From Eukaryota sp. GEM-RC1 (taxonomy: Eukaryota), in contig JAUFOQ010000017.1 of assembly GCA_040285855.1 (NCBI GenBank), forward strand, positions 1,240,001 to 1,304,000: DNA of 64,000 nt. Direction: 5' to 3'. Position 1 is the stretch's first letter, and every line of letters starts with the position of its first letter. Below are positions 13,030-51,760 of the stretch, piece after piece. Position numbers and translations under genes: made by a program. The notes beneath the pieces were generated by a model, which was not told the DNA's origin, did no database searches, and worked only from the letters and a program-made list of their open reading frames with translations.

Positions 13030-13119
13030 TTGAAGATGTTGAAAGTGACAATTGACGTGAAAAGTTAGTTGTTGAAAGTCAATCCTCAAAATTACCTTTT
13101 CTGAACTCTTTTATTAAGT

Positions 13120-17466: not shown

Positions 17467-20063
17467 ATGTCTCTTCTTGAATTCGCGACCCACTTTCACC
17501 TGTACTTTAAGGGGAAACCGCTGCGTATTGATAACGTGGAATCAGTTGCGGAGGAGATCCAGAAATATCCTCCTGATCCAGAGGTGGATACCTCTTATAT
17601 TCTATCTTATTTCCTTTTCTCTTTGCGATATATTGTACATGACGACTCGCTCTCAGCAAATTTTCCCTTGCTTCATGCTGTCTTGAGATTCTATCAAAAT
17701 AGCCCTGATTACCCTCCTTATCTGATTATGCATGCCACAGAAAATCTCATTCAAAGGTATGCCATACACATAGACATTTACGAAGAGTCAGACCCAGCTA
17801 TAGGCGCAACTCGGTTAAAGATAGTTTTTGACAACAAAAAGTGTAAAAAAGGATGGCGATTTTGGGGTGACCTATTCGAGTTTCTTGCAGGTCAAGTAAA
17901 GCCTCCTTTCATCTACGAAAAGACCAAGAAAGGGGACAAAGTGTCATTTGTATTCCCTAAAACTACACCGTGGTTTCACTATGAACCTTCTACAGGAATT
18001 CCACTGTTTTCATCACTTCCCGATGATTATAACAATTGCTCTGATTATGTGAGGGAAAATCATGGATCTGCACATCTTTTGCTTGTGGTCTTTGATGTTG
18101 TGCGTATGTTCAGTTCTAAACAAGTTATTGCTGATAGCTACAATGATATCTACAATCTCATTGATGACTTGGATAGAACACTGCATTCTGGCTTCTTCTC
18201 TTTACACGATGTTCTGAAACGCATTTCTGGTCTTTTTACTGATAGTTTCAGGGATGTTTCATGTGTTGTGGACCGTTCTAGAGTTCCATTGCCCCATTTT
18301 GATGGACGTCATTATGAGTGGATTTGCTGTTTGTCAAACACTGTTGATACTGCTTCAAACACACTAGATAAACTACTCGGATTCTTTGACCTCTTCAATA
18401 GTCTTCTGACACCACTCAAGGAAAAAGAAAATCACACAAACTATAATTTACTGACGGCACTGGACTTTCGTTATGAACTTGTTGATGGTCGTATCAAAAT
18501 CAGTTGGTGGTCACTTTACCTGAATCGATCATCTGTCAATCTCATTTCTCATGATCTTCTTGAGTTTAGTTATCCTCTTTCAGCCTCTTACCAATCTGTC
18601 ACTCCTGAGTTTCAGAATAGTGAAGAAACTCCGTGCTTTCTTAATAGGAACGATAAGACATCAGAAGGGTTTTGTCAGTTCTTGGGGGATCAATATGAAC
18701 GAGATTTACCTGATGTACCTTACCGCTTCCTTGATGAACAAGTTGATAGGAGTGATTGGGAAATCCCACCTCCTTTAAGAAATCTATGGAAGATTGTGCC
18801 TCAAGTTGGTTTCACTAATAACAGTGATGGGAGATTATCAGATTCTAGGTCAAGATTCAATGGCAGTGGTTGGCTTTATCCTGTACATTACAACAATAAG
18901 ATACGGTGGGTTTTGGTGACAAATAATCATGTAGTTTATCCTTGCAAGGAGTTGTATATTTTGTGTCTTTTCAAAAACAATGATGTTACCAATACTCAAA
19001 CTTTGCGTTTCCACTCTTTTGTTTGTTCGTCACCAGCTGTCGGTGAGAAATCTGTTATACCTCAAATTGATGTTGCTGTTGGTATTTTTGAGCAAGATTT
19101 CTCCGAGAACTTTTTTTATGATGAGGATGAAGAGACTCAGTATTCCGAGTTATTTAAACACACCCGCTACAAATTTGAATTGTCTCAAGATCCTATTGAA
19201 TTTACCACTGCTTTTGAAGACCGCCGACCAGTGTATTTAATTAGCCATCCTGGGTCTACCAGTGCAGGAGCTGTTGTATCTAAAAGTATAATCGAAGATC
19301 ATGATTATCATACGTTTACAACAGAATCATGTAGTCTTCCTGGGTCTTCGGGGGCTTATTGGTCTCTATCACGGAAGATGATGACGTTTTCGTTATTGGG
19401 TTTGTTTATGGTTCATTTCAGATAACAGGAAAACACTTCACAGTTGGTATTAAGTTTTGGCGTTTTCGGAGTATGTTTGAATGTCCTATCCAAACCTATG
19501 TTTTACGTCGTCAGATTTTTGAGAATCCATTTATCCGAACAGCCGTTCAAAACTATGCTTTGAATAATAATTACCATGCTCTGGAGTTTCTCCGTTATGA
19601 GCCAACAACAACAGTTTTGCTCTATTCTGCTCTACACCCAACTTTCCTGTACAATATATTGAACAACCTGGTCAGATCGTTTTCTCCAGCATTTTATCAA
19701 ATTTTGTTCGACAAACTAGATCCTTTTTGGAAACGGTTGTTTTTTCATGCAATGACTCTTACTCATCATTTCTTTGGACGAATTGACCTCAATGTCGTTG
19801 ATTTCTACAGACATTGTGCATGTTTGCTTATGTTTCTTTATCAGAAATTATCTGTGTTTTTTACTGACTCGAATCAATTTTCCAACGCGGTAACTTCTGA
19901 TTCCCTAGATGTTACTTCTTTAGTCCGTGTGTTTATCTCTGTGGATGATGTGGGAATGGAAATGCGTTTAGGAGCTCAAATCAAAGACCCGGAAAGTGAT
20001 TCGCTTGTGTATTATGCTCACACAGATAGCTTTTCGCAATTAACAACTTCAAATGAAGACTAG
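17467..20063 (+). CDS. Protein with internal trypsin-like (S1/Trypsin_2) serine peptidase domain
   Basis: GSGWL..VLVTNNHVV (His), IDVAVGI (Asp), SLPGSSGA (Ser); frameshift near 19360 joins the 19359-20063 ORF (VFVIGFVYG follows the Ser motif as expected). Confidence 0.75.
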
Positions 20064-20372
20064 ATTCGCCATTATCTTTAAACTCTCCATTATTAAAAAT
20101 GTATATAAAATTATTTAAACATGTATTTTAGAGTCCGTTTAGGCAATTAAATTTCTACAGTCTACTGTTGCTTTAATGTATCCCTCGAATTGAAATCGAA
20201 TGACAAGTCTCTTCCAGCTCCTGTGAGACTCTATAGATTGCTGACTGTATTTGCTGCAATGCGTTACTGTCAAAATTCTACGAACGAAAGAATTAAAATA
20301 TTGATGCTGTGTCTAAAAAAAGTCGATTTAGATAACATATTGAACGACAACTTATGGGCCAATACAAGTATT

Positions 20373-21701
20373 TTATTCATCAGAAAAAGAAACTTCAGCT
20401 GCATCGACACTTTCAGCTACAAATAGCAAGTCATTTCTCTGTGAAGGATCAACATATCGTTTCAAATAAAACTCTTTCCAAACATAATCCATCACGTCAT
20501 CAACATCTGACTCCTTAACCATGGCAATACAATTCCCACCAAATCCTGCACCAGTCAACCTTCCTCCCAGTACAGACGGATGACCAAGCATCACTGATAA
20601 TAGTAAATCAATGTTAGGGGATGAACACTCGTAATTGTCTCGAAGGGAGTCTTGACTTTGATTCAATAGCTTTCCAAGAACTGTACAAATATTTAAATTG
20701 TCTCCTCCCAAAGAAGATAAATGATCAAATTCCATAACTCTTTGAAATTCTGTAACAACGTGCAATGCTCGTTTGAAAGGTTTGTAGTAGATATCAAAGG
20801 GATTGGTGGATGTAGCAAATGCATTTTTTAAAATTTTTGATTGAATGATGTCTGTTGAAATGTTTAACATTTCGGAAATTTCGAGCAAACTTAACGGTCG
20901 TTGAGGAATTGCACTTTGCAACACTTCTATCATGGCAGATGCTTCATAAACTTCCCCGGCATAAAAGACATCCCGTAGAGACAAAATTTCAAAAATATCA
21001 TCAAGATTCAAAAATTTGGCAACAAATACACACGCCATCCTCATTTCAACAACACATAGATTATATTTCAAATCCTTGGATTCCGCTTTATGACACTCTT
21101 CCAACGAATGTGCTACAATGAACTTAACACAAGAGGGAAGTAAATTTGAGTGACATCTCAAGGGAGAGAAAGATATGTAAGAGTAATGGGATCGCTTGGC
21201 ATTTAGAATGACTGCTTGGTCCATCCCACCACTTAGAGTGCCACAGAATTGTTCAGCTTTGCGTGTGAGTTCAGCAAGAACCATACGGTCGGTAATGGGT
21301 TGGGATAGGAAAAAGTAATTGAAGATTAACATGAAAGTAACTACAATGGCAGAGCTTGAACTTAAACCAGAGGCGATAGGGATGGTAGAGTGACAAGTGA
21401 CATTGAGACCTGAAGAAGTAAGAGGTGAAGATTGTAGATGGTGTATTCCTTTCAATGCACAAATGGCATATGAAGCAAGATTGGGTTTTGAACACGTTAT
21501 GGGGCTATTAGAGAGATTATTGGGATCATCAAGTGAGATATCAAAGGTCTGGTTGTTGATCGTTATGTGAATGGTGTTGGATTCTGTTTTCTTAACTTCG
21601 GCAGTGAAATACCTATTAATTGCAAAGGGGAGAACTTGGAAGTGAGAATAGTCCACATGTTCACCAATGATATTGACTCTAGAAGGTGTGCGAATAATCA
21701 T
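20373..21701 (-). CDS. GALK: Galactokinase / N-acetylgalactosamine kinase, copy 1
   Basis: PSRVNIIGEHVDY, PIASGLSSSSA (GHMP), GGMDQ, RALHVVTE, GGRLTGAGFGG. Confidence 0.93.
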   Translation of the reverse strand: MIIRTPSRVNIIGEHVDYSHFQVLPFAINRYFTAEVKKTESNTIHITINNQTFDISLDDPNNLSNSPITCSKPNLASYAICALKGIHHLQSSPLTSSGLNVTCHSTIPIASGLSSSSAIVVTFMLIFNYFFLSQPITDRMVLAELTRKAEQFCGTLSGGMDQAVILNAKRSHYSYISFSPLRCHSNLLPSCVKFIVAHSLEECHKAESKDLKYNLCVVEMRMACVFVAKFLNLDDIFEILSLRDVFYAGEVYEASAMIEVLQSAIPQRPLSLLEISEMLNISTDIIQSKILKNAFATSTNPFDIYYKPFKRALHVVTEFQRVMEFDHLSSLGGDNLNICTVLGKLLNQSQDSLRDNYECSSPNIDLLLSVMLGHPSVLGGRLTGAGFGGNCIAMVKESDVDDVMDYVWKEFYLKRYVDPSQRNDLLFVAESVDAAEVSFSDE

Positions 21702-21802
21702 AAAGAATAACTTTTCAGAAATGAAATGCATCGACTACTACAATGTAGTATGTTGAATCAGTTTCACTGCAGCAGAATATGCTAGAATCTGCGATGTGAG
21801 CC

Positions 21803-22735
21803 CAGGAGTGTGTATCGATAAAATCTTATTGTTCGATAACGATATATCTACTCTTATCGACCCGACAATTCTGAAAGATATAATTATCGACTGTCTCCAG
21901 CAACATTCCGATATATTGGGATAAATAAGGACAAATTGTTGGAGACAAAATAGACCATTTTTCTGGTTTCACTGAGTGATTTCACTGAAACATGTACACC
22001 GATTGTTTCATTTTTTCATTTTCTCTGGTCACATATCTATATTTATCTATATATGTGACATGGGTGATGTGATATGTGTGATTCACATGTATCACAAAAT
22101 GCATGAAAGTGTGATACCCAAGTATGTATTCAAGTAGGGTTTTAAGTTGATCTTACAAGTATAAAAGTTCATCTAACTTTAAAAGCTCAGTCGATCATTG
22201 GCATTTTTGTTGCGTTTTTCTCGTTAAAGACCAACGAAGTAGTACATTGTGTATTTGGGAGGTCAAAATTGAAACTTTCATATCGAAGTTAGTCTCACTG
22301 AGACCATTTTCTAGTGAGACTAATTGGAAACAATCGCTGTGTTGAAAAGTGTAGTAAAGACTGATAAATGATGTTGGAGAAATTGATTGCTGCAGCACAA
22401 TTACATTTGACCCATGATTTGTCCAGAAAAGACATTGAGGCTGTAGCAAGGTCGCCAACTTGTACTTTAGGCTAGCTAATTCTGCTCTAACCCCTCCAAA
22501 AGCTGAGCACAGAGATACGCGTGGTGCTTGGAAATGCGTTAAGCATAATAAACGTAGTTTTATTAATACACATATATTTCATATTTCTATTGTACGTCAT
22601 TCAATTATCGAAGATATTTTTACCGATTTATGGTTGAATAGTCCATAATTAGATAAGATATACTCCCTGACATTATATTTATCGAAGTTGCCTAACAAAA
22701 CGATAAATAAAAGATATCGAAAATACACACTCCTG
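21803..22735. mobile_element. hAT-like TIR element, about 933 bp, present only in duplication copy 1
   Basis: TIR CAGGAGTGTGTAT; TSD ATGTGAGC (21794-21801, 22736-22743); single empty site at 27326-27333 in copy 2. Confidence 0.92.
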
Positions 22736-23841
22736 ATGTGAGCTATCAATCAGTGAATCAAATGTAATTTACAAAGAGAAGAATATTAAATCGTCAATTC
22801 TATTACAAACACTACAATTGCCCTTGATATTAGGTGAATTTGGTTCCTCTAGTGACATTATTGGAAACAGAGTTTATGAATGAGACGGACTGTAATATGA
22901 ATCAAAATATTAGCTACGAAGCTCTAGACACTCTCATACAACATAATGACAAATATTCAAATGAGGGTAATGGAATCAAGTCTTGGCCCCAGATGTTCAA
23001 GTACTTCAAATTTAGTCTGCACAATTGCCTAATGGAATTCAAATTGTAGGAATTTGGTTAAACAAAACTTGAAATACAAAGAAAAGTTTTCATTGCTTCT
23101 GGTAGTGGCTGATCCAGATCATACAACTTCCTTATCATGTATATAACATGTGTTTGACACGTCACAGGGATATGCCTTGATATGATGAAGTCACGTGTCG
23201 GTAAACGTGTAAGGATGTAGTCAACACCATGTACAATTGTAAAAGCAGGGGATGTTGGTGCAAGAATTGGATGGGAACACAAGTATCCATCATAGATAGA
23301 AGCACGCTGCTATTAGATCAATGAGAAAGACTTGACGCTACTCAGGAACAGCGAGAAGTAGTTGCATCTGATCCAAAATGAATTAAAGATGAAGAAGAAG
23401 AAAGAAGAATTCTCTGGAAAAAAGAAGATTGAGAGAGGAAGGGAAAGCAATGCTACGAGCCTGTTTGACAACAAAGGGTATGATTGTAAGGGCAAATGAA
23501 GAGATCTAGCATATGAAACAATCTCTCTCCTTAATAGGTACAATAGTACGAGCAATGACAGAACGCAATTGAAGGTCATGATACGATGTGGATGTTAGAG
23601 CTAAAACACGGTTAGGGCAAATGATGTGATCACTGGCGGTATATAAGAGTTGATTAGGACACCAATATATGTTCCATCTCATACGAGGAGGATGTTAGAG
23701 CTAGAACACACTTGCAAGAAAAAAAACCAATGGAAGCGTGTTAGCACTGATATGACATTAAGGCCTGTCCGCTATACAAGCCGCCCTCAAGGCATTATAG
23801 AGAAGATAGAGATAGAGAAGATAAAGGCTTAAGACAACCCT

Positions 23842-25643
23842 AAAGTAGTATTTTATTAAAGCCATGAACATGAGAAAGACTCATCAGCTATTTAGAGGAT
23901 TGTTGGAAAAAGTCTATCACAAGCACTAGTGGTAGCAGTAAAAAGTGAAAAGAAAACTGTTGGCAAAATCAAAATCCCCTATGACACGGAATCCTGCTGA
24001 GAGGAAAGTGATGAACAATCAATTACAATGTCGACAGTGACTTATTTCCGTCTCATGACTCCATCAGGTTTGTTGATGTCTCACACAATAAGAGGTTCCA
24101 ATCCTCCTCGGCTGGATGTTTCGTATCCAGTTGAGACTGAAAGTTCCGTCCTTTCAGTTATGTGTTCAGGAGGTTCCAATCCTCCTAACACTATAAGAGG
24201 TTCCAATCCTCCTCGGCTGGATGTTTCATATCCAGTTGAGACTGAAAGTTCCGTCCTTTCAGTTATGTGTTCAGGAGGTTCCAATCCTCCTAACACTATA
24301 AGAGGTTCCAATCCTCCTCGGCTGGATGTTTCATATCCAGTTGAGACTGAAAGTTCCGTCCTTTCAGTTATGAATTTGGGTGGGGACTACGGCCCTAACC
24401 CAGGATTAACAACTCAGGGCAGTTGCAGAGAAGAGGCTTATAGCTTGATATCTGCAACTCCTGATGAGTTAATACCGCAGTGGTCCGTGTCTTGTTGTAA
24501 AACTCGACAAAAGCAATTCACTTTTGATTTGGAGAATAAACACAATTTCAAATTTTGTTTGATTCATTTGTTTGTGAAAGATTTAACCAACGATGGTGAT
24601 ATCGAGTCGAATCCCGGACCGGTATCATTTAACTCACATGAATTTGAAGACATAACATTGTTGTCTGAATGTGAATGGTTAGAGCTATTCCATCTTCTTT
24701 TTCCATAAATAATATCAGTTTGGATTACCCACTCGCCAATCAAACTATTGGATTTTTATCATGTATATAACTTTCTAACGTTAGAGAAAGATGTTATTTA
24801 TCATGATATAAGAGAAAAAAATGCAGATTGTCGGCTTGTTCTTATTCTCATGAACAATGGTATTATTGACGGATTTGCTGGAACTCACTGGGGACTATGT
24901 GTTATAGATTTCATGACTGAAACGTTATACTTCATGGATTCTATTTCTAACAGTGATTTGTTGTCCTCAAAAATTGATTTTATACAATCGTTTTGCCCAA
25001 ACAACTTTTACCATTGTCACATTAATTCTGTGAAACAGGACAATGGTTATGATTGTGGCATATTTGTTCTGTATTTTATTGAAGTTTTATTTAAGACATT
25101 TAACGTTGAAACAATTGATCACATTGATCACTGTATAATGATGACAGATTTTCAAAATGAAATTATGCATCATCAATTTGATCCCTCTCAATTTCGTATC
25201 AGATTGAACTTAAAACTGGACAGCCACGTTAATCCAGGAAAAAGGCTTGCCACTGTCAGCAATATGCCTCCAAGAAAACAAAAACGATCAAACAATAATA
25301 ATGAAAACGAACCCCAACTGGTGAAAAAACCAATTGGGCGTAAATGTTCAAAGTGTAGAAACACTGGTCATGATATAAGAAAATGCCCATTGGCAGTAAA
25401 AACAAGTGAAAAAACAAACGAAAAAGAATCACCAGTTAAGTCTGAAAAAAGAAAAGATCCTTTCGAAAACGTAACCTTAATGTTAGATCACAAACACTCG
25501 ATTAAGTGCATTTTTGTGAAAATGATCGAAGCTTCAGCAGCTATTAAAGAAACTAAAAAAGAAAAAAGAGAAAAAAATAATCACATCAATTATCACTCAA
25601 ACAGTTCAAGTCCAGGACCAAGTAATTACAATTGTAGAATCAA
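23842..25643 (+). mobile_element. 3'-truncated copy of the Fanzor element (repeats, 2A, Ulp1-like protease, zinc knuckle)
   Basis: Near-identical to 28432-30125; ends at the duplication junction. Confidence 0.85.
24085..24372 (+). repeat. 105-bp (35-aa) coding tandem repeat, about 2.8 copies (about 1.8 copies in copy 2 at 28675-28857)
   Basis: AGAGGTTCCAATCCTCCTCGG at 24091, 24196, 24301. Confidence 0.9.
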
Positions 25644-25907
25644 AATTATTTAAACATGTATTTTAGAGTCCGTTTAGGCACTTAAATTTCTACAGTCTAC
25701 TGTTGCTTTAATGTATCCCTCGAATTGAAATCGAATGACAAGTCTCTTCCAGCTCCTGTGAGACTCTATAGATTGCTGACTGTATTTGCTGCAATGCGTT
25801 ACTGTCAAAATTCTACGAACGAAAGAATTAAAATATTGATGCTGTGTCTAAAAAAAGTCGATTTAGATAACATATTGAACGACAACTTATGGGCCAATAC
25901 AAGTATT

Positions 25908-27236
25908 TTATTCATCAGAAAAAGAAACTTCAGCTGCATCGACACTTTCAGCTACAAATAGCAAGTCATTTCTCTGTGAAGGATCAACATATCGTTTCAA
26001 ATAAAACTCTTTCCAAACATAATCCATCACGTCATCAACATCTGACTCCTTAACCATGGCAATACAATTCCCACCAAATCCTGCACCAGTCAACCTTCCT
26101 CCCAGTACAGACGGATGACCAAGCATCACTGATAATAGTAAATCAATGTTAGGGGATGAACACTCGTAATTGTCTCGAAGGGAGTCTTGACTTTGATTCA
26201 ATAGCTTTCCAAGAACTGTACAAATATTTAAATTGTCTCCTCCCAAAGAAGATAAATGATCAAATTCCATAACTCTTTGAAATTCTGTAACAACGTGCAA
26301 TGCTCGTTTGAAAGGTTTGTAGTAGATATCAAAGGGATTGGTGGATGTAGCAAATGCATTTTTTAAAATTTTTGATTGAATGATGTCTGTTGAAATGTTT
26401 AACATTTCGGAAATTTCGAGCAAACTTAACGGTCGTTGAGGAATTGCACTTTGCAACACTTCTATCATGGCAGATGCTTCATAAACTTCCCCGGCATAAA
26501 AGACATCCCGTAGAGACAAAATTTCAAAAATATCATCAAGATTCAAAAATTTGGCAACAAATACACACGCCATCCTCATTTCAACAACACGTAGATTATA
26601 TTTCAAATCCTTGGATTCCGCTTTATGACACTCTTCCAACGAATGTGCTACAATGAACTTAACACAAGAGGGAAGTAAATTTGAGTGACATCTCAAGGGA
26701 GAGAAAGATATGTAAGAGTAATGGGATCGCTTGGCATTTAGAATGACTGCTTGGTCCATCCCACCACTTAGAGTGCCACAGAATTGTTCAGCTTTGCGTG
26801 TGAGTTCAGCAAGAACCATACGGTCGGTAATGGGTTGGGATAGGAAAAAGTAATTGAAGATTAACATGAAAGAAACTACAATGGCAGAGCTTGAACTTAA
26901 ACCAGAGGCGATAGGGATGGTAGAGTGACAAGTGACATTGAGACCTGAAGAAGTAAGAGGTGAAGATTGTAGATGGTGTATTCCTTTCAATGCACAAATG
27001 GCATATGAAGCAAGATTGGGTTTTGAACACGTTATGGGGCTATTAGAGAGATTATTGGGATCATCAAGTGAGATATCAAAGGTCTGGTTGTTGATCGTTA
27101 TGTGAATGGTGTTGGATTCTGTTTTCTTAACTTCGGCAGTGAAATACCTATTAATTGCAAAGGGGAGAACTTGGAAGTGAGAATAGTCTACGTGTTCGCC
27201 AATGATATTGACTCTTGAAGGTGTGCGAATAATCAT
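25908..27236 (-). CDS. GALK: Galactokinase / N-acetylgalactosamine kinase, copy 2
   Basis: Same GHMP motifs as copy 1; retains YNLRVVE. Confidence 0.93.
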   Translation of the reverse strand: MIIRTPSRVNIIGEHVDYSHFQVLPFAINRYFTAEVKKTESNTIHITINNQTFDISLDDPNNLSNSPITCSKPNLASYAICALKGIHHLQSSPLTSSGLNVTCHSTIPIASGLSSSSAIVVSFMLIFNYFFLSQPITDRMVLAELTRKAEQFCGTLSGGMDQAVILNAKRSHYSYISFSPLRCHSNLLPSCVKFIVAHSLEECHKAESKDLKYNLRVVEMRMACVFVAKFLNLDDIFEILSLRDVFYAGEVYEASAMIEVLQSAIPQRPLSLLEISEMLNISTDIIQSKILKNAFATSTNPFDIYYKPFKRALHVVTEFQRVMEFDHLSSLGGDNLNICTVLGKLLNQSQDSLRDNYECSSPNIDLLLSVMLGHPSVLGGRLTGAGFGGNCIAMVKESDVDDVMDYVWKEFYLKRYVDPSQRNDLLFVAESVDAAEVSFSDE

Positions 27237-28617
27237 AAAAAACAGAAAACAAACTAAAGAAAAACTTTTCAGAAATGAAATGCGTTGAATCAGTTTCACT
27301 GTAGTAGAAGATACTAGAATCTGCGATGTGAGCTATCAACAGTGAATCAAATGTAATTTAGAACGAGAAGAATATTAAATCGTGAATTCAATTACAAAGA
27401 CAACAATAGCCCTTGATATTAGACGAATTTGGTTCGCTAATCACGTTATTTGAAACAGAGTTTATGAATGAGACGGACTGTAATAAGTATCAAAATAATA
27501 GCTACGAAGCTCTCGACACTGAACATATTGGAGCCACAGTTCTCATACAACATACTGACAAATATTCAAATAAGGGTAATGGAATCAAGTCCTGGCCCCA
27601 GATGTTCAAGTACTTCAAATTTAGTCTGCACAATTGCCTAATGGAATTCAAATTGTAGGAATTTGGCTAAACAAAACTTGAAATACAAAGAAAAGTTTTC
27701 ATTGCTTCTAGTAGTGGCTGATCCAGATCATACAACTTCCTTATCATGTATATAACATGTGTTTGACACGTCACAGGGATATGCCTTGATAAGATGAAGT
27801 CACTTGATGGTAAACGTGTAAGGATGTAGTCAACACCGTGTACAGTTGTAAAAGTAGGGGATGTTGGTGCAAGAATTGGATGGGAACACAAGTATCCATC
27901 ATAGATAGAAGCACGCTGCTATTAGATCAATGAGAACGACTTGACGCTACTCAGGAACAGCGAGAAGTAGTTGCATCTGACCCAAAATGAATTAAATGAA
28001 TTCTCTGGAAAAAGAAGATTGAGAGAGGAAGGGAAAGCAATGCTACGAGCCTGTTTGACAACAAAGGGTAGGATTGTAAGGGCAAATGAAGAGATCTAGC
28101 ATATGAAACAATCTCTCTCCTTAATAGGTACAATAGTACGAGCAATGACAGAACGCAATTGAAGGTCATGATACGATGTGGATGTTAGAGCTAAAACACG
28201 GTTAGGGCAAATGATGTGATCACTGGCGGTATATAAGAGTTGATTAGGACACCAATATATGTTCCATCTCATACGAGGAGGATGTTAGAGCTAGAACACA
28301 CTTGCAAGAAAAAAAACCAATGGAAGCGTGTTAGCACTGATATGACAATAAGGCCTGTCCGCTATACAAGCCGCCCTCAAGGCATTATAGAGAAGATAGA
28401 GATAGAGAAGATAAAGGCTTAAGACAACCCTAAAGTAGTATTTTATTAAAGCCATGAACATGAGAAAGACTCATCAGCTATTTAGAGGATTGTTGGAAAA
28501 AGTCTATCACAAGCACTAGTGGTAGCAGTAAAAAGTGAAAAGAAAACTGTTGGCAAAATCAAAATCCCCTATGACACGGAATCCTGCTGAGAGGAAAGTG
28601 ATGAACAATCAATTACA

Positions 28618-29193
28618 ATGTCGACAGTGACTTATTTCCGTCTCATGACTCCATCAGGTTTGTTGATGTCTCACACAATAAGAGGTTCCAATCCTCCTCG
28701 GCTGGATGTTTCATATCCAGTTGAGACTGAAAGTTCCGTCCTTTCAGTTATGTGTTCAGGAGGTTCCAATCCTCCTAACACTATAAGAGGTTCCAATCCT
28801 CCTCGGCTGGATGTTTCATATCCAGTTGAGACTGAAAGTTCCGTCCTTTCAGTTATGAATTTGGGTGGGGACTACGGCCCTAACCCAGGATTAACAACTC
28901 AGGGCAGTTGCAGAGAAGAGGCTTATAGCTTGATATCTGCAACTCCTGATGAGTTAATACCGCAGTGGTCCGTGTCTTGTTGTAAAACTCGACAAAAGCA
29001 ATTCACTTTTGATTTGGAGAATACACACAATTTCAAATTTTGTTTGATTCATTTGTTTGTGAAAGATTTAACCAACGATGGTGATATCGAGTCGAATCCC
29101 GGACCGGTATCATTTAACTCACATGAATTTGAAGACATAACATTGTTGTCTGAATGTGAATGGTTAGAGCTATTCCATCTTCTTTTTCCATAA
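28618..29193 (+). CDS. N-terminal segment with 35-aa repeats and 2A (StopGo) peptide
   Basis: FVKDLTNDGDIESNPGP matches the D(V/I)ExNPG-P consensus exactly (29083-29106). Confidence 0.8.
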   Translation: MSTVTYFRLMTPSGLLMSHTIRGSNPPRLDVSYPVETESSVLSVMCSGGSNPPNTIRGSNPPRLDVSYPVETESSVLSVMNLGGDYGPNPGLTTQGSCREEAYSLISATPDELIPQWSVSCCKTRQKQFTFDLENTHNFKFCLIHLFVKDLTNDGDIESNPGPVSFNSHEFEDITLLSECEWLELFHLLFP

Positions 29194-29232
29194 ATAATAT
29201 CAGTTTGGATTACCCACTCACCAATCAAACTA

Positions 29233-29720
29233 TTGGATTTTTATCATGTATATAACTTTCTAACGTTAGAGAAAGATGTTATTTATCATGATATAAGAGA
29301 AAAAAATGCAGATTGTCGGCTTGTTCTTATTCTCATGAACAATGGTATTATAGACGGATTTGCTGGAACTCACTGGGGACTATGTGTTATAGATTTCATG
29401 ACTGAAACGTTATACTTCATGGATTCTATTTCTAACAGTGATTTGTTGTCCTCAAAAATTGATTTTATACAATCGTTTTGCCCAAACAACTTTTACCATT
29501 GTCACATTAATTCTGTGAAACAGGACAATGGTTATGATTGTGGCATATTTGTTCTGTATTTTATTGAAGTTTTATTTAAGACATTTAACGTTGAAACAAT
29601 TGATCACATTGATCACTGTATAATGATGACAGATTTTCAAAATGAAATTATGCATCATCAATTTGATCCCTCTCAATTTCGTATCAGATTGAACTTAAAA
29701 CTGGACAGCCACGTTAATCC
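29233..29720 (+). CDS. Ulp1/SENP (C48) cysteine protease domain, SENP8/DEN1-like
   Basis: GTHWGLCVID (His 29371), YFMDS (Asp 29422), KQDNGYDCGIFVL (Gln and Cys 29539). Confidence 0.88.
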
Positions 29721-29747
29721 AGGAAAAGGCTTGCCACTGTCAGCAAT

Positions 29748-32700
29748 ATGCCTCCAAGAAAACAAAAACGATCAAACAATAATAATGAAAACGAACCCCA
29801 ACTGGTGAAAAAACCAATTGGGCGTAAATGTTCAAAGTGTAGAAACACTGGTCATGATATAAGAAAATGCCCATTGGCAGTAAAAACAAGTGAAAAAACA
29901 AACGAAAAAGAATCACCAGTTAAGTCTAAAAAAAGAAAAGATCCTTTCGAAAACGTAACCTTAATGTTAGATCACAAACACTCGATTAAGTGCATTTTTG
30001 TGAAAATGATCGAAGCTTCAGCAGCTATTAAAGAAACTAAAAAAGAAAAAGAGAAAAAAATAATCACATCAATTATCACTCAAACAGTTCAAGTCCAGGA
30101 CCAAGTAATTACAATTGTAGAATCAATTATATTCACTACACAACAAAGTTGCGATTCAGTTCTGTCACCTAATTCTGAGCATGCTAGAGTGAATGTTCAA
30201 GCGTTTAATCAAGAGGAATCTATAATTAGTGCGTTTAATGATTATTTAGTTTTAACTGACTGTGGTCTGATAATTGGTTATGATGCAAGTTCTACGATGG
30301 ATGAATTTAATTTAAAATCAGAGAATTGTTCAATTATTCAGTGTCCTCTTTTTTACAAATATTTTTTAAAACAATTCAAAAATTCAAAAATTCAGTTAAT
30401 AGATTTGGGCCGTGTTATTAGAAATTATTACAGACCTAGAACTGGAAAATCTTTGAATTGGGTTACTGTTGTAAAGAACATTTTAAAAAATGAAAGTTAT
30501 TCAGTTCCCACACCAGTTTCTACAGATTTCACCATTGAACAAAACTTGAACTGTTTACGTGAACATTTTAACGATATTGTTGAATTACAAAGCCTTTTTG
30601 TGTATTTCCTTCAAGTCGAAACACAAGAATTGCTGAAATGCCCGGGTGAAAAAACGGTTATAGTAACCCTAAAATCTGTTTGGACTGATAACAACATATT
30701 GGTAGATGAAATTTCTATAAATCATCACCGAATTAAACAACGTGCATTGCTGCTACTTCAAGGCTTTTGCATGAACTCTTTTGATAATCAGGAATTGAAT
30801 CCAGTAGAATGGACCAAAGAAAGTGTCCACCAATTGCTCTGGACTATTGGATTCTTGTCTCCATTAGCTCATCAAAGATTTAAAAATGAGGAAAATATTG
30901 ATGGAAGTGAAATTCTCAAATGGGTAACTGAGATTGTTCAAAGTACTCCAGGCAAAAAGCACAATGCTTTAAAAATTCAACTCGGATGCTTCTATATCCA
31001 ACATCTTCTCCCCGTGGATATGGAAATTCCCAATGTCAAGTACTCTGATATGTCTCGTACATTAAGTTATACAGCTACTGAGATTGTTACAATGTATCAA
31101 AATAATATTTCATCCCATTTTATTGAATATTTGGAAAAAACATGGGAACTCTTCTTTAATTTAAATGGACAACTAAAAATTATTAAAAACAATGCACTTA
31201 AAAAAGTCGAAAAAGACCAGTTGCAAAAGTTGTCCAATAATATCCTTAAAGAAATTTTAGAAGGCAGAGGATCCGATATTGATTTTACCGAGATCTGGCA
31301 AAATCCATCAGATGAACATCAAAATTTCATTACATTTGTCAAAAACTTTAAGCCAGACTCTAAAGGACTCAAATACCAATTAAAGGTAAAGCCTTTGGAG
31401 CTCTTACCAGAGGCCTTCGTTCTCAACAAATTGATTGAGAATAACCCTTCCTGTAATGAGATTCCACCAAAGATGTACCGCATGTTTCCACAATCCACCA
31501 GCTTAATTCCTGATCACCTTCGATTGGACACGTAAGCTATGATTAAATTATTCAAACCTCAAGTTCAAGGTTATAATCTAACACATCTGACCAAAAACAT
31601 TAATTTATTTAAAAATGAAATTTGGAGCCAGTATTTGAATCTTGATCACAAATACTTGAACACTTTCAAAAGATGTATTCATTTGGTCACCAGATAACTA
31701 CCAATGGTGAATCAATCAGTCTCATGATGACCAGAAATGATCTACTGTTCAAACCATACTCTGCCAAGTCTCCGGAGGAAAAAGAGGAGTATGTGGAAGA
31801 TTTACATCCTGAAAAATTAGAGGATTTTAAAAAATAAAAAAAGTCGTGGTAGGGGACCCTAACCAATGGGATATTCTGTACTTGGTTGGAAGAAAAACCC
31901 AGGAAGAAATTGATAATTCTGGGCATTGTGCTCCCCACTTGACCCAAAAATCTCAAAAACATATGAAAAGAAGAGATTGAAAGAAATTAAAAGGCATAAA
32001 GCCCAGTTCCAAAAAGAGAATGATGAGGTCAAAAAATCAAGTAAAAAGAGACCATTTCAAAAGAAAAATCAATTCAAAAAAATGAGATATACTCAAGGAA
32101 CTCGAAGGCACGAAGGAAAACAAAAAAAAATACAATGTATTTCAGAACCAAGCCTTCAATAACTATTCTTTTACCGAAATTTCAGGAAGACAACTGACAG
32201 CTGAACAGATTCAGACAGAATTTTCAGAATTTACTTCCAAAACAACAAAGTTTTCAAAATTTAAAGCTTACGTCCAACAATTCTACAAGTATGCAAATAG
32301 AATGGAGTCTCTGTACCATCAATCTAAATGGCGCAAATGGAGCTATTGGAAATCAGTATACAAGGAAAAAAGTGAACGTAAAATGCTCCATCGATTCCGT
32401 CAAGTTTACGGAGATCCAACCAACACGTGGTTGGCCATAGGTGATTGGAGTCAGTCAAGGCATAGGAAATACAAGCCTCCAACCATGGGGAAAGGATCAA
32501 GAAAGTTGTTCAAAAAGCTGGCTATCAGGTTCTTCTGGTTAACGAATTCAGGACATCTCTTCAGTGCCACGGATGTTCTGAGAACAACGATGACGAAGGG
32601 GAAACGGAAACCTTCCTTAAAGTCAAGGATCCAAACTTCAGGAAGAAGAAGCGAAGAGTTGAAAAGAAGGCAAATCGCCTATCAGCGCTGATGAATTGGT

Positions 32701-33017
32701 CTAGTTGGACGGACGAAGATGACAAGCTGTTGTGGCAGGAAGAGGCAGATGAAGTCAAGTGTTGGGGTTTAGTGCGTTGTAAAAAATGTCATAAACTCTG
32801 GAATCGAGACTTCAATAGCTGTTTGAATATTCTGAAGATTGTTGAGTGTACTCTCGCTGGTGAGGATCGACCAATGTGTTTCTCCGACAAGTTAGCTGAA
32901 GAAAGACGGAAGAGAGCAGCAAAGAGTACAAACAACAATGAAGATTCAATAACAGAAACAGTGGCGGACCCGCAAGGGATAGAACCGCCACAGCCCATGT
33001 GCACTGAATGTAGATGA
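29748..33017 (+). CDS. Zinc knuckle + degenerate exonuclease-like domain + Fanzor1 (TnpB-family RuvC) nuclease; interrupted in this assembly
   Basis: CSKCRNTGHDIRKC knuckle; Fanzor1-type motifs LSYTATEIVTMYQNNISSHF, FPQ..IPDHLRLDT, ITTNGESISL; RuvC-I VVVGDP (31855); MRYTQ; LAIGDWS..PPTMGKG; RuvC-II VLLVNEFRTSLQCHGC (32544); zinc ribbon CKKC; RuvC-III WNRDFNSCLNI (32808). One TAA at 31533 plus several frameshifts, mostly in A runs. Confidence 0.88.
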
Positions 33018-33100
33018 ATGTCCATATATCGTTACATCTTAGGAGAAATTCACAGAAAATGAATTAAGAAAACTACTCTTGACAACTCTCTTTTGAAATG
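32955..33100 (+). ncRNA. Candidate Fanzor omegaRNA (scaffold plus start of guide)
   Basis: GTGGCGG/CCGCCAC stem enclosing a CCC-GCAA-GGG tetraloop hairpin; AATTCA/TGAATT hairpin; located at the ORF 3' end and element right end. Confidence 0.55.
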
Positions 33101-33779
33101 AACAATTGCTGAGTCACCGTCTTGTAAACTAGCTATTGGTGATCTTTGCGTGTAAAGACAGAAGCATTTTCGAAAAGACTATTGTTTGATATTGTTGATC
33201 AATTTTCCAACACTGTTTTGAGCTACATTTTCTACCTACAAAGAGAGTTTGCTGTCGATATTTTTGATGTATCTTAAAGATTATAACTTGTACCCTGAAA
33301 CACTAATTAAAGAAACATATTAAATAATATCCAAAGTAAGTAACAAAAACAGTCATCAGAAATTCCAATGTTTGATTTTACATTGTACTTTTGAAATGAG
33401 TTGTTTGAAATATTCAGAATCGGTTTGAATGGATACTACAATGGTAATTCCTTGTTTTTAATTCCTTGTTTTTTTTAATTTTCTAAATCACGTCAATTAA
33501 TCATCCAGAAACACTAATGATCCGAGCCAATCATTTATTCGCGTTGATTTGCCAACTGAGTAAACACATATTCTAGTCAAACGTTTGTATTAGAAACAAT
33601 TGAAAATTGCACAAAATCTACATTGTTTCCGTTTGACTAATTTAACAAATTTTGAAAGTGGTAAACATGGTCTTATAATCAAGACAGTTAAAAACAAAAT
33701 TAGTAACAAATGAAAAAACAATATGATAAGCAGAAATTTGAAAAATTGGTTCCATCATTACTGAAAATTAGTAGAACCA

Positions 33780-34440
33780 TTGAAGTAAAACGTGAATTCG
33801 TAACAAAATGATTGTGAGTTTTCTATAACACACATCCTGAACCAACACAATTAAAAAATGTCCAATTACTATTAAAGATTTGATAGTTGAATAACCGATT
33901 CAAAACTTTTTGCAGTTTCAATCAGCAACTTTTCAACTTCTGGTATTTCCTTTACCTTACAAAACACCTGTAATTCAACAACTAACTCCTCTTCTTCAGC
34001 CAAACGATACACAAGCATCTGCTGGTTTGAAAAGAATAACAGCTGCCTTTCTTAGTTCGATTTCCAATCTCTGAAAATCCCAGAGACCGAAGAAAGCTCT
34101 TTGAAGAAGAGCCATACATGTGAGAAGTATTGAAGGATTCTATTTTTATCCTTAGTGAAGTTCGTTGAGGGAGAGAGTGGAGGATGATGGTTCTGTCAAG
34201 GTCTGATGAACAGTCTTTTGATCGATCAGGATGAAGACAGCTTGATGGATGTCAGGAAGTTGAGTACATCTAAATAAGGTTTCTTTCACGTCAAAATTGA
34301 CTGGGACAGCTGAGAATATATTGAGAAGATCAGTGAGTTTGTGAAGATCTGAGGAAGAAATAACTCCACGAAGACAGCATCTTACTTCAATAGAGCTGGA
34401 GAAAGGTGGGAAAAAGAGAGGCATGTGTGAAGCCAACAAT
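33780..34440 (-). CDS. Hypothetical protein, fragmented
   Basis: Coding-like composition and a 95-aa ORF with apparent continuation across frame breaks; no recognisable motif. Confidence 0.3.
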
Positions 34441-34745
34441 TAATTCAAGATTTCGTTGAACACTTATTTGTGTTTCATGACGAAAGATTGCAGTGTTGTG
34501 ACTATACTACCTATATCTAATCGTTGTTGTTTCACTTAAAACCACATGTGTTTTGGAAAACTGTTGTTCTCAAATATGAAAAGCTTCTTGAAAAAACGCA
34601 AATGCATTCACAATGTTGTTCACCACGCAAAAGTTCACATTTTGGTTTAATTACTAGTAATTCTTATAAACAAAAATTGAATATTTTAAACAAAAAATGT
34701 CTGTAAATAACTTGCTCCCAACACAAAAGTCAGCCCAAAGTTCTC

Positions 34746-35255
34746 TTAAAATCGGCCTCTAAATCGTCTACCTCTGCCCCTTCCTCGACCTCTACCCCTA
34801 CTCATGTTTGGTAGGTTTGTCCTTTTAGCTACAACAGCAATCTGTCTACCATTATCCTTGATGATACTATCATTAAGTGCAAGAGCGGCTTCGGCCTGAG
34901 ATTTCTCTGAGAACTCAATATACGCAAAGCCTTTTGGTTGTCTCATGGGATTCACTGGAAGAGTTACACGTTCAATGTTACCGCACGCTGAGAAATGATC
35001 TTCTAGTTCAGCTGATGTGGTTGCAGGACCAAGATTTCCAACGAAGATGCTCCGACTGTCTACTTCCTCCTTTTGTGCCCACGATATCTGTGGTTTAGGC
35101 GACGGAGTAACAGATGGTTGGCGAGCTGCTGCAGGAGAAGATGGTTTGTTGACTTCGGTCAATTTTTCGGCTTCTGATTGAAGTTGACGTAGTCTTTCCT
35201 GGTACTCTTGATATTTGTCAGATACAGAAGAGGTTTCAGTCGTTGTGTCAGACAT
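34746..35255 (-). CDS. PABPN1: Nuclear poly(A)-binding protein (PABPN1/PABP2)
   Basis: KEEVDSRSIFVGNL, PKGFAYIEF, VVAKRTNLP, RG-rich tail. Confidence 0.88.
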   Translation of the reverse strand: MSDTTTETSSVSDKYQEYQERLRQLQSEAEKLTEVNKPSSPAAARQPSVTPSPKPQISWAQKEEVDSRSIFVGNLGPATTSAELEDHFSACGNIERVTLPVNPMRQPKGFAYIEFSEKSQAEAALALNDSIIKDNGRQIAVVAKRTNLPNMSRGRGRGRGRGRRFRGRF

Positions 35256-35361
35256 TTGTATTGTGTTTAAGGTGTGTGTCTGGTTGAAAAGAAATTGGAA
35301 TTCCACTTTGATCTTTTTGACTCTACCTGACCACTACTTTGTAGTACAACCTCTAACTTAA

Positions 35362-36621
35362 ATGAACTCTCTTGTTGTCACTGAAGCCAAACGCACTGTG
35401 GCCGTTCTTAAAGAAGCAAATACCAAAGCTCAAGCTCTTGCCTTTGTAACCAATGATCTTACTCCACATCTAAAAGACCTCAAATCCATTGACAGCGATC
35501 TTACACACCTCATTGAACAACTTCTCGACACATACAACCAGTACTCCAACCTTGTCAGCAACATTGGTCAAGGATCTCGTGTCAGAGTAGAAGCCTCCCC
35601 AGAATACTCTGAAATCGTTACTATTCTACGTCGTCTTGTTCGTAACTACTGTTCCAAAGCCGTCACTAGCCCTGCTTTCCTTGAAGCTCTGGAGATCCTC
35701 AACAAAGAGGACATCCAGCTGTCTCAGTTCCGACAGACATTGGTTGAACTGACTAGGCTGACAAGTGCAAAGCTACTAGAGTATAATGATCAGCTTCTGC
35801 TTCTTAAAGATGATGATTTATCCACGTTGTTGATTGAGCATTCTAAGTTAAATGATGAGATTAGTAGACTCCGGGTTGATTATAACCGGATTTCTAGTGA
35901 ATTCTCAACAGCTCAAAAATCAAAAGATGACGTGCTTTCAAAACTTCAGAAGTCAATATTTGATTTGGAACAGGAGAAGCAAGCCGCACTTAGTGAAATC
36001 TCAAAAGTTAATGCAGTGCAACGTGAGAACGACCTTAAATCACATACTGAGACAGTCAAAAATCTAAAAGAGGAAAGAGATCGATTGTACAAGCAGTGGA
36101 TGGCTGAAATAGATGATCATAACAAGATTGAAAACGAAGCACGGACTGTCAAATTACAGAAACAAAAGGCTGCTAAGAAGTGGATTGAAGATTATGATGA
36201 CGTTATGACCAAGAAACAACAGGACTATGACGAGTTAAATGAGAAATTTTTAGCAAATAGAGCTGAATTGGAGCGGCTTTCTGAAAAATGGAATGAAATT
36301 GACAGGTTGAAAGCAATCGAAGATGAAAAGCTCAAGATTGAAGCTGAACATCAACAGCATTTGAGGTACATTAGGTCTGTTATTATTATTCAATCACTGT
36401 GGAGAAGACATCAAGTACTGAAAATCCATGGTGCTCTGGTACAGGCTGCTATTGATAAGGTCAGACCGAAGAAGAAGAAAGGGAAAAAAAGGAAAGAAAG
36501 GAAAAAAGGGCGGGAAGAAAAAGAAAAAAGTAGGTGTACTGTTTCTAAGCTGTTTGTTATTCTCTCTGTATTTCTTGTGAAGTCTTTATTTCACTTCAAA
36601 TTCATTATTTCTGTAAAATAA
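35362..36621 (+). CDS. DRC10: Dynein regulatory complex subunit 10 (IQCD)-like
   Basis: N-terminal 'EAKRTVAVLKE', coiled coil, 'WIEDYDDVMTKKQ', IQ motif IIIQSLWRR, Lys-rich tail; true stop may be ~36533. Confidence 0.7.
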   Translation: MNSLVVTEAKRTVAVLKEANTKAQALAFVTNDLTPHLKDLKSIDSDLTHLIEQLLDTYNQYSNLVSNIGQGSRVRVEASPEYSEIVTILRRLVRNYCSKAVTSPAFLEALEILNKEDIQLSQFRQTLVELTRLTSAKLLEYNDQLLLLKDDDLSTLLIEHSKLNDEISRLRVDYNRISSEFSTAQKSKDDVLSKLQKSIFDLEQEKQAALSEISKVNAVQRENDLKSHTETVKNLKEERDRLYKQWMAEIDDHNKIENEARTVKLQKQKAAKKWIEDYDDVMTKKQQDYDELNEKFLANRAELERLSEKWNEIDRLKAIEDEKLKIEAEHQQHLRYIRSVIIIQSLWRRHQVLKIHGALVQAAIDKVRPKKKKGKKRKERKKGREEKEKSRCTVSKLFVILSVFLVKSLFHFKFIISVK

Positions 36622-50883: not shown

Positions 50884-51760
50884 TTTTAGGAACTTTATTT
50901 TGTTTTAGTTTTGCTCTTGATATCTTCACGTAGTTTCTGAGCAATTAAAGCAATTGGTGTGGCCCAAGAATTACATTTAGTGTGTATTTTACAATATTTG
51001 TACCGGAGTAGAATTAGTATGGCCCACACTAATTCTTATTATCTGTCTCTTTCAAAGTGTTAATTTTCGACTCAATTATTGTGGATCACATTTCTTTAAA
51101 AAATAAAACAGTGAATTAGACATAGCTTGAATGGTATTAATTTATTGTCGATCCAGCAACCAGCCAAGATTTGAGAGGCAAGAACAACTTTACAGAACGG
51201 AAAGAAGACGTTTGTTGATTTATGGATCGATCTTACATTGCAATATACTCTAACACAACGATGAGTCGGGAATATTGACTTACTATATCATTTTGGTGGA
51301 AGATTTTCACCCACACTTCAACTAATTCTTCTTAGGGAAAGCAAATGCAACTTTGATCCGACAACTCGGGACTATTAATACCCAAAGTGTTTATTAATGT
51401 AATATTCTGGAACTAAGAAAACTACAATGTGATATCATTAAAACAACACTCTTCATTACAGTATCAAATCTTACAACAGCTGATATAATTGTATTCCACA
51501 AGAATTCTAATTTCTACAATCTCATCATAGTGATGAAAATTACTCTAGCTGCTGTAGACTCCAAAGCTTTACTAGCTGTGAGTTACTATTATGAGGATAG
51601 CCCGTAACTGAAGGCTGTTACTTCAATGATATCAAATTATAGGTTTTTTTGTATATTACAGATCATTCAAAAAAAGTAGACTTTGCTTGTGCAGTAATTA
51701 ACTTTGGCAACCCAATTCATCTCTCTCAGATAGTCCATTCTCAAAACTCTTTTCCTGTCT

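Follow-up and report, generated by a model that had tools for sequence, protein, structure and literature searches.

A decayed locus of Eukaryota sp. GEM-RC1 in which a 2A motif, a C48 protease and a zinc-knuckle Fanzor1 stand in line: a possible relic of a one-frame polyprotein element

Fanzors are the RNA-guided nucleases of eukaryotes, and how they cope with the eukaryotic cell is little known. Here we describe a Fanzor1-type locus in a stretch of 64,000 nucleotides from Eukaryota sp. GEM-RC1 (contig JAUFOQ010000017.1, positions 1,240,001 to 1,304,000, forward strand; hereafter the window, in whose own numbering all coordinates are given), in which a leader, a 2A motif, a C48 (Ulp1/SENP-type) cysteine protease, a nuclear localisation signal (NLS), a CCHC zinc knuckle, an N-terminal extension and the nuclease follow one another head to tail, on one strand and with no spacer. 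We put the chances at about even that this arrangement is the relic of an element that once encoded leader, 2A, C48 protease, NLS, CCHC knuckle and Fanzor1 as one polyprotein. No copy at the locus is intact, and in all likelihood nothing here is functional now. The evidence comes from this single decayed locus, the value of which is that of a lead for the rest of the genome.

The protease lies on the plus strand at 29104-29723, in the frame of the leader and with one stop codon (TAA, 29191-29193) in its course. It scores 39.1 bits with the Pfam family PF02902 (Peptidase_C48; cut-off 20.7, E 9.2e-10) and aligns to positions 79-192 of the 217 in the profile, and the result is unchanged when the stop is read as X. 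The catalytic sites are the His in GTHWGL (29365-29382), the Asp in FMDSIS (29416-29433), and the Gln and Cys in KQDNGYDCG (29518-29544); in an alignment to sequences of the Protein Data Bank (PDB), all four fall on their counterparts in yeast Ulp1 (1euv; tHW, mDS and QdNGYDCG), and the protease proposed in the initial annotation is thereby borne out. The same annotation had read an affinity to SENP8/DEN1, the NEDD8-specific C48 protease, from the GTHW motif, and this proposal is less well supported. SENP8 shares with the locus a short N-terminus before the WL... helix, and carries GGTHW at its catalytic His (PDB 1xt9) where the locus has AGTHW, but the latter is a two-residue resemblance, and SENP8 (E 6.1e-4) is a weaker match than Ulp1 (E 5.5e-5), with ChlaDub2 (2.4e-3) and SENP1 (0.012) behind it. 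As Ulp1, SENP8 and the deubiquitinase/deneddylase ChlaDub2 fall within two orders of magnitude of one another, the modifier that such a protease would cleave does not appear to be readable from its sequence. An AlphaFold2 single-sequence model of the protease (stop as X) reached a mean pLDDT of 34.1 and gave no usable fold.

The TAA is common to both copies of this region that the window contains (29191-29193 in copy 2, which runs on into the nuclease, and 24706-24708 in the truncated copy 1), and it stands 30 codons past the 2A site. As the Pfam match sets in 67 residues after NPG/P, and there only at profile position 79, the 78 positions before it must extend across the stop. The SENP1 alignments (E 0.012, marginal), which run from residue 11, also cover it, so that the TAA, at residue 30, lies within the C48 domain. 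The first Met after it falls inside the matched protease core, and the whole catalytic domain is not found in a single open frame in either copy.

Directly ahead of the protease, the leader open reading frame (ORF; plus strand, 28618-29106, with a first ATG at 28618 and an alternative ATG at 28855) ends in the sequence DIESNPG/P (29083-29106), as does its counterpart in copy 1 (24028-24621, motif at 24598-24621, also on the plus strand). The pattern D(V/I)ExNPG/P is given as the defining motif of 2A/StopGo peptides in the portion of the source available to us (10.64898/2026.09.24.754024), and within the window D[VI]ExNPGP occurs at these two sites alone in all six frames, against an expectation of 3.2e-5 per window. 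The sequence just ahead of the protease is by its letters a canonical 2A motif, at which skipping is predicted; it formed no part of the initial annotation. The FKFCLIHLFVKDL stretch upstream of it is hydrophobic, and a hydrophobic stretch is described for 2A-like helices in the available part of PMC13405545. Ahead of the motif its frame is open from 28591 on, and behind it there are 28 codons before the TAA; followed from the other side, the protease frame extends across this one TAA into a 200-codon frame with terminal FVKDLTNDGDIESNPGP, and leader/2A and protease are consequently one frame divided by a single stop.

The leader also contains a 105-nt (35-codon) tandem repeat, in 2.8 copies at 24083-24372 and 2.0 copies at 28673-28884, which holds a T-loop-like GGTTCCAATCC and a 13-bp hairpin and across which both strands are open. 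The leader repeat region folds well beyond its shuffles (z = -7.75), and the repeat may be a structured non-coding 5' element instead of coding sequence. A tRNA or other known RNA was considered for it and rejected, with 0 genes from ARAGORN and 0 matches in Rfam at E up to 1. The leader ORF itself has no Pfam match, and its best ESM Atlas score, 0.75, is uninformative.

Beyond the protease, direct reading of the plus strand finds an ATG with a basic NLS-like stretch, MPPRKQKRS (29748-29774), and then, as had been annotated, the CCHC knuckle CSKCRNTGHDIRKC (29829-29870), the spacing of which is the canonical C-x2-C-x4-H-x4-C. Pfam zf-CCHC gave no match to it at E up to 1, and a CCHC-repeat protein (P0003) aligns over the knuckle part. 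Between the knuckle and the Fanzor core (29871-30630, plus strand) lies an N-terminal extension of about 250 amino acids of no recognisable family (best ESM Atlas score 0.76; mean pLDDT 32.9 in an AlphaFold2 single-sequence model), so that the roughly 300 residues ahead of the core are made up of NLS, knuckle and some 250 amino acids without an assigned family. The GC content is 0.309 in the protease and 0.313 over NLS, knuckle and extension, and 0.37-0.44 in eight host ORFs.

The core itself (30630-33017, plus strand) is decayed and colinear with its relatives, and its final frame ends in a TGA at 33015-33017. That it derives from a Fanzor nuclease, and one of Fanzor1 type, is confirmed by the following evidence. 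First, a TNB zinc-ribbon domain (PF07282, Cas12f1-like_TNB) is found within 32466-33017, where it scores 33.2 bits (cut-off 26.3, E 5.8e-8). Second, when eight relatives were compared with the window by tblastn, the six full-length ones aligned from residue ~70 to residue ~640 over 30920-32950, colinearly and across three frames; one relative (P0014) matches the Spizellomyces Fanzor1 SpuFz1 (8gkh) over its full length at 3.7e-41. Third, the final frame matches the Parasitella Fanzor1 in PDB at E 1.5e-4, with a further direct PDB match at 0.013. The catalytic and zinc-binding motifs have been kept, namely GDPN (31843-31866), NEFRTS (32532-32558), CxxC (32565-32576 and 32778-32789) and NRD (32799-32819), and they follow the pattern D-X(125,275)-[TS]-[TS]-X-X-C4-X(5,50)-RD, with TSLQC from 32550 onward and the D some 233 codons before the TS, albeit legible at this locus only across frameshifts. 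This definition of the motif is that of Bao and Jurka (PMC3627910, in its available portion).

These relatives come from a search of the 605-amino-acid frame that covers the NLS, the knuckle and the N-terminal half of the nuclease (29718-31535) against 1.84 billion representative proteins at E up to 1e-3, which returned 64 protein matches; two of these match the knuckle only and were set aside, and the other 62 are Fanzor-like. Relatives of 600-770 amino acids align from about residue 410 of the query to about residue 90 of their own. Two matches, P0001 and P0002, are fragments 96-100% identical to the frame, annotated as hypothetical proteins of an unclassified eukaryote, and each is present on two contigs, which makes the Fanzor part multi-copy. 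P0002 shows seven amino-acid changes within 31 residues, placed between long identical blocks.

The nuclease gene is not intact, as one TAA and five frame changes lie between 31533 and 32520. The frame path is 0>2>1>0>1>0, with four shifts at the A-runs 31668-31671, 31829-31842, 32122-32130 and 32512-32516 and a fifth that could be placed no closer than 31867-32081; P0002 reads through the first of these sites. The TAA (31533-31535) falls within a conserved LDTxxL block where P0002 has Leu, and the decay is thus real at least in part. Two ways around this stop were rejected. An intron that would remove it is at odds with the surrounding codons, which align to conserved Fanzor residues and are read as coding by P0002, and a genetic code in which TAA is sense is at odds with host usage, as TAA ends seven of the 12 host ORFs checked, both galactokinases included. 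The decay is also uneven: the 605 N-terminal codons (29718-31535) are without shift or stop despite 26 homopolymer runs of at least five, and the C-terminal half (31536-33017) has five shifts and the TAA with 18 such runs (Fisher p 0.008 between the halves). Selection on the N-terminal part and patchy polishing could each account for this. No guide (omega/f) RNA was recognised by Rfam at E up to 1 in 20000-36000, and the fold of 32880-33260, at the 3' end of the Fanzor, has z = -1.05.

What appear as two copies arose by a single tandem segmental duplication of 4.5-5.5 kb, of which they are the arms, and not by separate insertions of an element. Self-BLAST of the window delimits unit 1 (20092-25643) and unit 2 (25625-30126), with 20092-21801 matching 25625-27333 at 97.6% across the galactokinase part, 22735-24267 matching 27325-28857 at 95.1%, and 24185-25643 matching 28670-30126 at 99.45% over 1459 nt. 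At the breakpoint 25643/25644 the interior of the element abuts sequence identical to 20097 onward. Copy 1 ends 81 nt past its extra A, described below, without a Fanzor body, since the duplication covered only the galactokinase gene and the first ~1.5 kb of the element; it is thus a truncated arm that lacks the nuclease, and cannot serve as the second witness of a protease-Fanzor gene for which the initial annotation had taken it. Identity between the units is a mosaic (100% at 20107-20406, about 90% at 21465-21801, 95% at 22735-24267 and 99.5% at 24185-25643), which suggests gene conversion or a complex history.

Over the 1459 aligned bases of 24185-25643 and 28670-30126 there are six substitutions and exactly two one-base indels, both in A-runs. 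The first decides whether the protease frame is joined to, or split from, that of NLS, knuckle and Fanzor: copy 1 has 5 A at 25239-25243 (GGAAAAAGG) where copy 2 has 4 A at 29724-29727 (GGAAAAGG). At the second, copy 1 has 6 A (25562-25567) and copy 2 has 5 A (30046-30050). The contrast of 5 A and 4 A had been reported at the outset, and the positions then assigned to the two differences (29722 and 25562) are correct to within 2 nt. In copy 1 a stop-to-stop frame of 314 amino acids (24709-25653) passes from the protease into MPPRKQKRS and the knuckle and is lost after 25562, where the extra A breaks it while copy 2 stays open into the Fanzor N-terminus, as had also been described. In copy 2 the protease frame (29194-29808, 204 amino acids) ends at a TGA (29806-29808), and the frame one base back (29718-31535, 605 amino acids) holds MPPRKQKRS, the knuckle and the Fanzor N-terminal half with no stop between them. 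When the frames of both arms are combined, the composite frame of the initial annotation does exist (29194-31532). What had been proposed, however, was a continuous C48-CCHC-Fanzor frame, and of this the part that stands is a composite open into the N-terminal half of the Fanzor; the protease is interrupted by its TAA, and the RuvC half by a TAA and five frameshifts. Four of the six substitutions lie in the frames read, two of them synonymous in the protease, one K/T in the leader and one E/K in the linker after the knuckle, and the remaining two (24187 and 24192) are at the 5' edge of the aligned block. The two arms alone cannot fix which state of the A-run is original.

Several features nonetheless speak for a native single frame. 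The 2A motif implies a strategy of several products from one frame; the parts overlap by 60 nt, so that a second promoter would have no place between them; the protease and the extension are alike in being richer in AT than host genes; and the junction A-run sits at the C-terminal boundary of the protease domain, some 60 residues beyond the catalytic Cys, in an element that is flanked by host genes and no transposase. Intact members of such a family would be translated from the leader as a polyprotein on a single mRNA, the leader would be set free during translation at the NPG/P of the 2A motif, and the protease would remain as the N-terminal head of a nuclear-targeted NLS-knuckle-Fanzor protein. 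There it might remove SUMO-, NEDD8- or ubiquitin-like modifiers, be it from the nuclease or from chromatin and ribosome-quality-control factors that would otherwise silence or degrade the nuclease.

A number of observations weigh against a one-frame ancestor. The in-frame state of protease and Fanzor is present only in the truncated arm, and a protease beside a Fanzor is seen at one locus only, the two arms of which are not independent. The Fanzor part of copy 2 has its own ATG at 29748, with an in-frame stop 10 codons upstream, as would a separate gene. The TAA shared by both arms dates the breakage of the protease to before the duplication. Among the 62 Fanzor-like matches there is none with more than 219 residues before the aligned core, none of the 12 relatives scanned has a C48 domain, and the 314-amino-acid protease-knuckle ORF found no match at any length among about 15 billion proteins (E up to 1e-3). 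This last result is weak evidence, as the 605-amino-acid ORF of the window is likewise missing from that collection. In the metagenome contigs searched, the exact 25-nt junction pattern had 0 matches and the protease ORF had 165 pattern matches of which 0 were confirmed, and in the viral contigs the Fanzor N-terminal ORF had six, again with 0 confirmed. The leader ORF gives no protein-like signal (Atlas recognition 1061), which along with its strong RNA structure means that the upstream leader part may be non-coding. Finally, the A-run differences between the arms could be homopolymer errors of the assembly.

As to this last explanation, we hold it to be a real possibility, if short of probable, that such errors account for the A-run differences between the arms, which would then be identical there, and perhaps for the five shifts downstream. 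Both arm indels are in A-runs, as are four or more of the five shifts downstream, with changes in both directions; such a pattern is typical of homopolymer error in repeated DNA. P0001 and P0002 likewise differ from the window by one-base shifts, which by a reading of the window DNA fall at A-runs, and are frame-broken in spite of protein identities of 96-100% over long blocks. Error does not appear to be uniform, however: no break is seen in seven host ORFs, which were chosen for being open and have 53 runs of at least five over 12.3 kb, and the two halves of the Fanzor differ as noted above. Both TAA codons, moreover, are substitutions and would remain regardless of run length, so that the locus is broken whatever the true runs may be. 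In any case this explanation concerns the true run lengths and not the identity of the element, and it cuts across the other readings.

It is less likely, but deserves to be taken seriously, that 4 A is the original state and that there were two overlapping genes, one of leader, 2A and protease ending at the TGA 29806-29808 and one of the Fanzor starting at ATG 29748, with an overlap of some 60 nt. The in-frame reading of copy 1 would then be an accident of A-run slippage in a dead and truncated duplicate, and a simple one, as any +1 change within the 88 nt over which the two frames overlap would fuse them and four A-runs of at least four are found there. The ATG with its NLS resembles a natural start, just downstream of an in-frame TAA (29715-29717), N-terminal NLSs are usual in Fanzors (PMC10530073, in the portion available), and the protease head is in none of the relatives compared. 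An overlap of 60 nt with no room for a promoter would nevertheless be unusual for two eukaryotic genes, an ORF 1.1 kb past the first AUG would be out of reach of scanning ribosomes, and the element already carries, in the form of its 2A motif, a means of making multiple products from one ORF.

We judge it rather improbable that the juxtaposition is a product of chance, whereby a Fanzor-only element inserted beside a 2A-C48 gene or transposon relic unrelated to it, or into the 3' end of such a sequence, with the shared strand and nearly shared frame coincidental. Fanzor1 genes have been captured in many unrelated types of transposon (PMC3627910), and Ulp1/C48 domains are found in several other groups of DNA transposon (Ginger, PMC2836005; Crypton, PMC3212892), as far as the available parts of these sources go; in addition, the Fanzor part is multi-copy and no second copy of the protease was found in the collections searched. 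Yet there is no spacer, terminal repeat or target duplication between the protease part and the Fanzor part, the join coincides exactly with the end of the protease domain, both parts are equally AT-rich, and the join is identical in both arms and so is older than the duplication.

We regard as highly improbable a programmed -1 frameshift in which 4 A is native and some ribosomes shift in the overlap to make a protease-Fanzor fusion in the manner of retroviral Gag-Pol. In its favour, the Fanzor frame stands at -1 to that of the protease, the two overlap by no more than 88 nt, a near-slippery heptamer (C AAA AAC) is found at 29763-29769, and 29770-29860 (91 nt) folds with z = -3.5. The heptamer is non-canonical, however, the main hairpin starts about 26 nt past it where the usual spacing of a frameshift stimulator is 5-9 nt, the overlap itself folds no better than its shuffles (z -0.35 and -0.43), and comparative support is lacking.

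As to the surroundings, the element is flanked by host genes for galactokinase and an RNA recognition motif (RRM) protein. Unit 1 comprises a galactokinase gene, an insertion resembling a miniature inverted-repeat transposable element (MITE) and the truncated 5' part of the element (by self-BLAST, reading of the junctions and Pfam), and unit 2 a galactokinase gene and the 5' part of the full element, which runs on beyond 30126. Both galactokinases are on the minus strand (20373-21734 in unit 1 and 25908-27332 in unit 2) and carry Pfam GHMP kinase and galactose-binding domains. The insertion, of 934 bp (21802-22735), is present in unit 1 only; it ends in inverted repeats of 13 nt (CAGGAGTGTGTAT), contains no ORF that Pfam recognises, and is flanked by an 8-bp direct repeat (ATGTGAGC), with the empty site at about 27325-27340 of unit 2. 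It looks like a hAT-like MITE that arrived after the duplication. Eight flanking ORFs include no transposase at E up to 0.1, and no other element gene is nearby; no convincing inverted repeats were found that would mark the ends of the element. Elsewhere in the window, a tandem array at 9256-11193 (81-bp period, about 24 copies, 91-96% identity) is open on both strands (frames 9089-11353 minus and 9109-11334 plus), and a dispersed repeat pair of about 250 bp (57942-58194 and 63069-63302) is 83.6% identical. There are three kinesin motor-domain genes (13105-15201, 46705-48897 and 51734-52465), and since two of the three ORFs begin or end mid-domain, host genes here have introns.

Should the relic be what we propose, it would be that of an RNA-guided nuclease bringing its own eraser of SUMO, NEDD8 or ubiquitin-like marks. 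This would point to a specific pressure of the host upon Fanzors, in the form of silencing, degradation or ribosome quality control that depends on SUMO, NEDD8 or ubiquitin, would offer a natural design for the stabilisation of genome-editing nucleases, and would add an element of the TnpB family to the RNA viruses and retrotransposons in which 2A-type recoding is known. The combination of 2A, C48 protease, knuckle and Fanzor was not found in the literature searched, supplementary tables being outside its scope. In text searches of three works on Fanzor1 nucleases and elements (Bao and Jurka 2013, PMC3627910; Saito 2023, PMC10432273; Jiang 2023, PMC10530073; the first and third in their available portions, and supplements outside the scope), no protease, peptidase or Ulp1 was named as a natural partner of a Fanzor, and such words occurred there for reagents alone; in the two papers found to name both Fanzor and Ulp1, the latter is, judging by titles and context, a purification reagent. 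Likewise, in the available parts of two surveys of eukaryotic 2A-like sequences (PMC13405545 and PMC12338488), "transposon" occurs only inside "retrotransposon".

Among known systems the locus is closest in its core to Fanzor1, for which structures from Spizellomyces (SpuFz1, 8gkh), Parasitella (PpFz1, 9cf0) and Guillardia (GtFz1, 9cer) served as reference. It shares with them colinearity to Fanzor1-like relatives, of which one matches SpuFz1 full length, the TNB zinc ribbon, the D...[TS][TS]xxC4...RD motif and an N-terminal NLS-like stretch. It departs from them in its ~300 extra N-terminal residues (NLS, CCHC knuckle and a part of no known family), in the C48 protease and 2A motif upstream and in line, and, relative to Fanzor1 elements, in being a decayed copy for which no partner transposase or terminal repeats were found. 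The presence of C48 in other DNA transposons is already known from the available accounts of Ginger1, Crypton and others, in which, as here, a mobile element encodes C48 and its four catalytic residues (His, Asp, Gln and Cys) have been kept; elements of this type move by an integrase, a tyrosine recombinase or a MULE transposase, and in none of those accounts is the C48 paired with Fanzor/TnpB. KI-MULEs also carry Ulp1.

The closest likeness in design is to the ORF2 proteins of non-LTR retrotransposons, in which 2A-like peptides precede the endonuclease (PMC3708506; PMC13405545) and of which some carry N-terminal Josephin or OTU deubiquitinase domains (PMC13405545), heads that the authors of the latter work tie to relief of the stalling induced by 2A; these statements follow the available parts of both sources. 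The order is the same, with a 2A-like motif, a protease of ubiquitin-like modifiers and a DNA-cutting enzyme in one frame. The components differ, in that the DNA-cutting enzyme is an APE endonuclease with a reverse transcriptase in the retrotransposons and a TnpB/Fanzor RuvC enzyme at the locus, and that the protease is Josephin or OTU in the former and a clan CE C48 in the latter. We suggest, and only tentatively, that intact members of the family would carry a 2A motif followed by a Ulp1-like deconjugase fused to a nuclear-targeted, zinc-knuckle Fanzor1, and so would have reached the same design of 2A, protease and endonuclease independently of the non-LTR retrotransposons.

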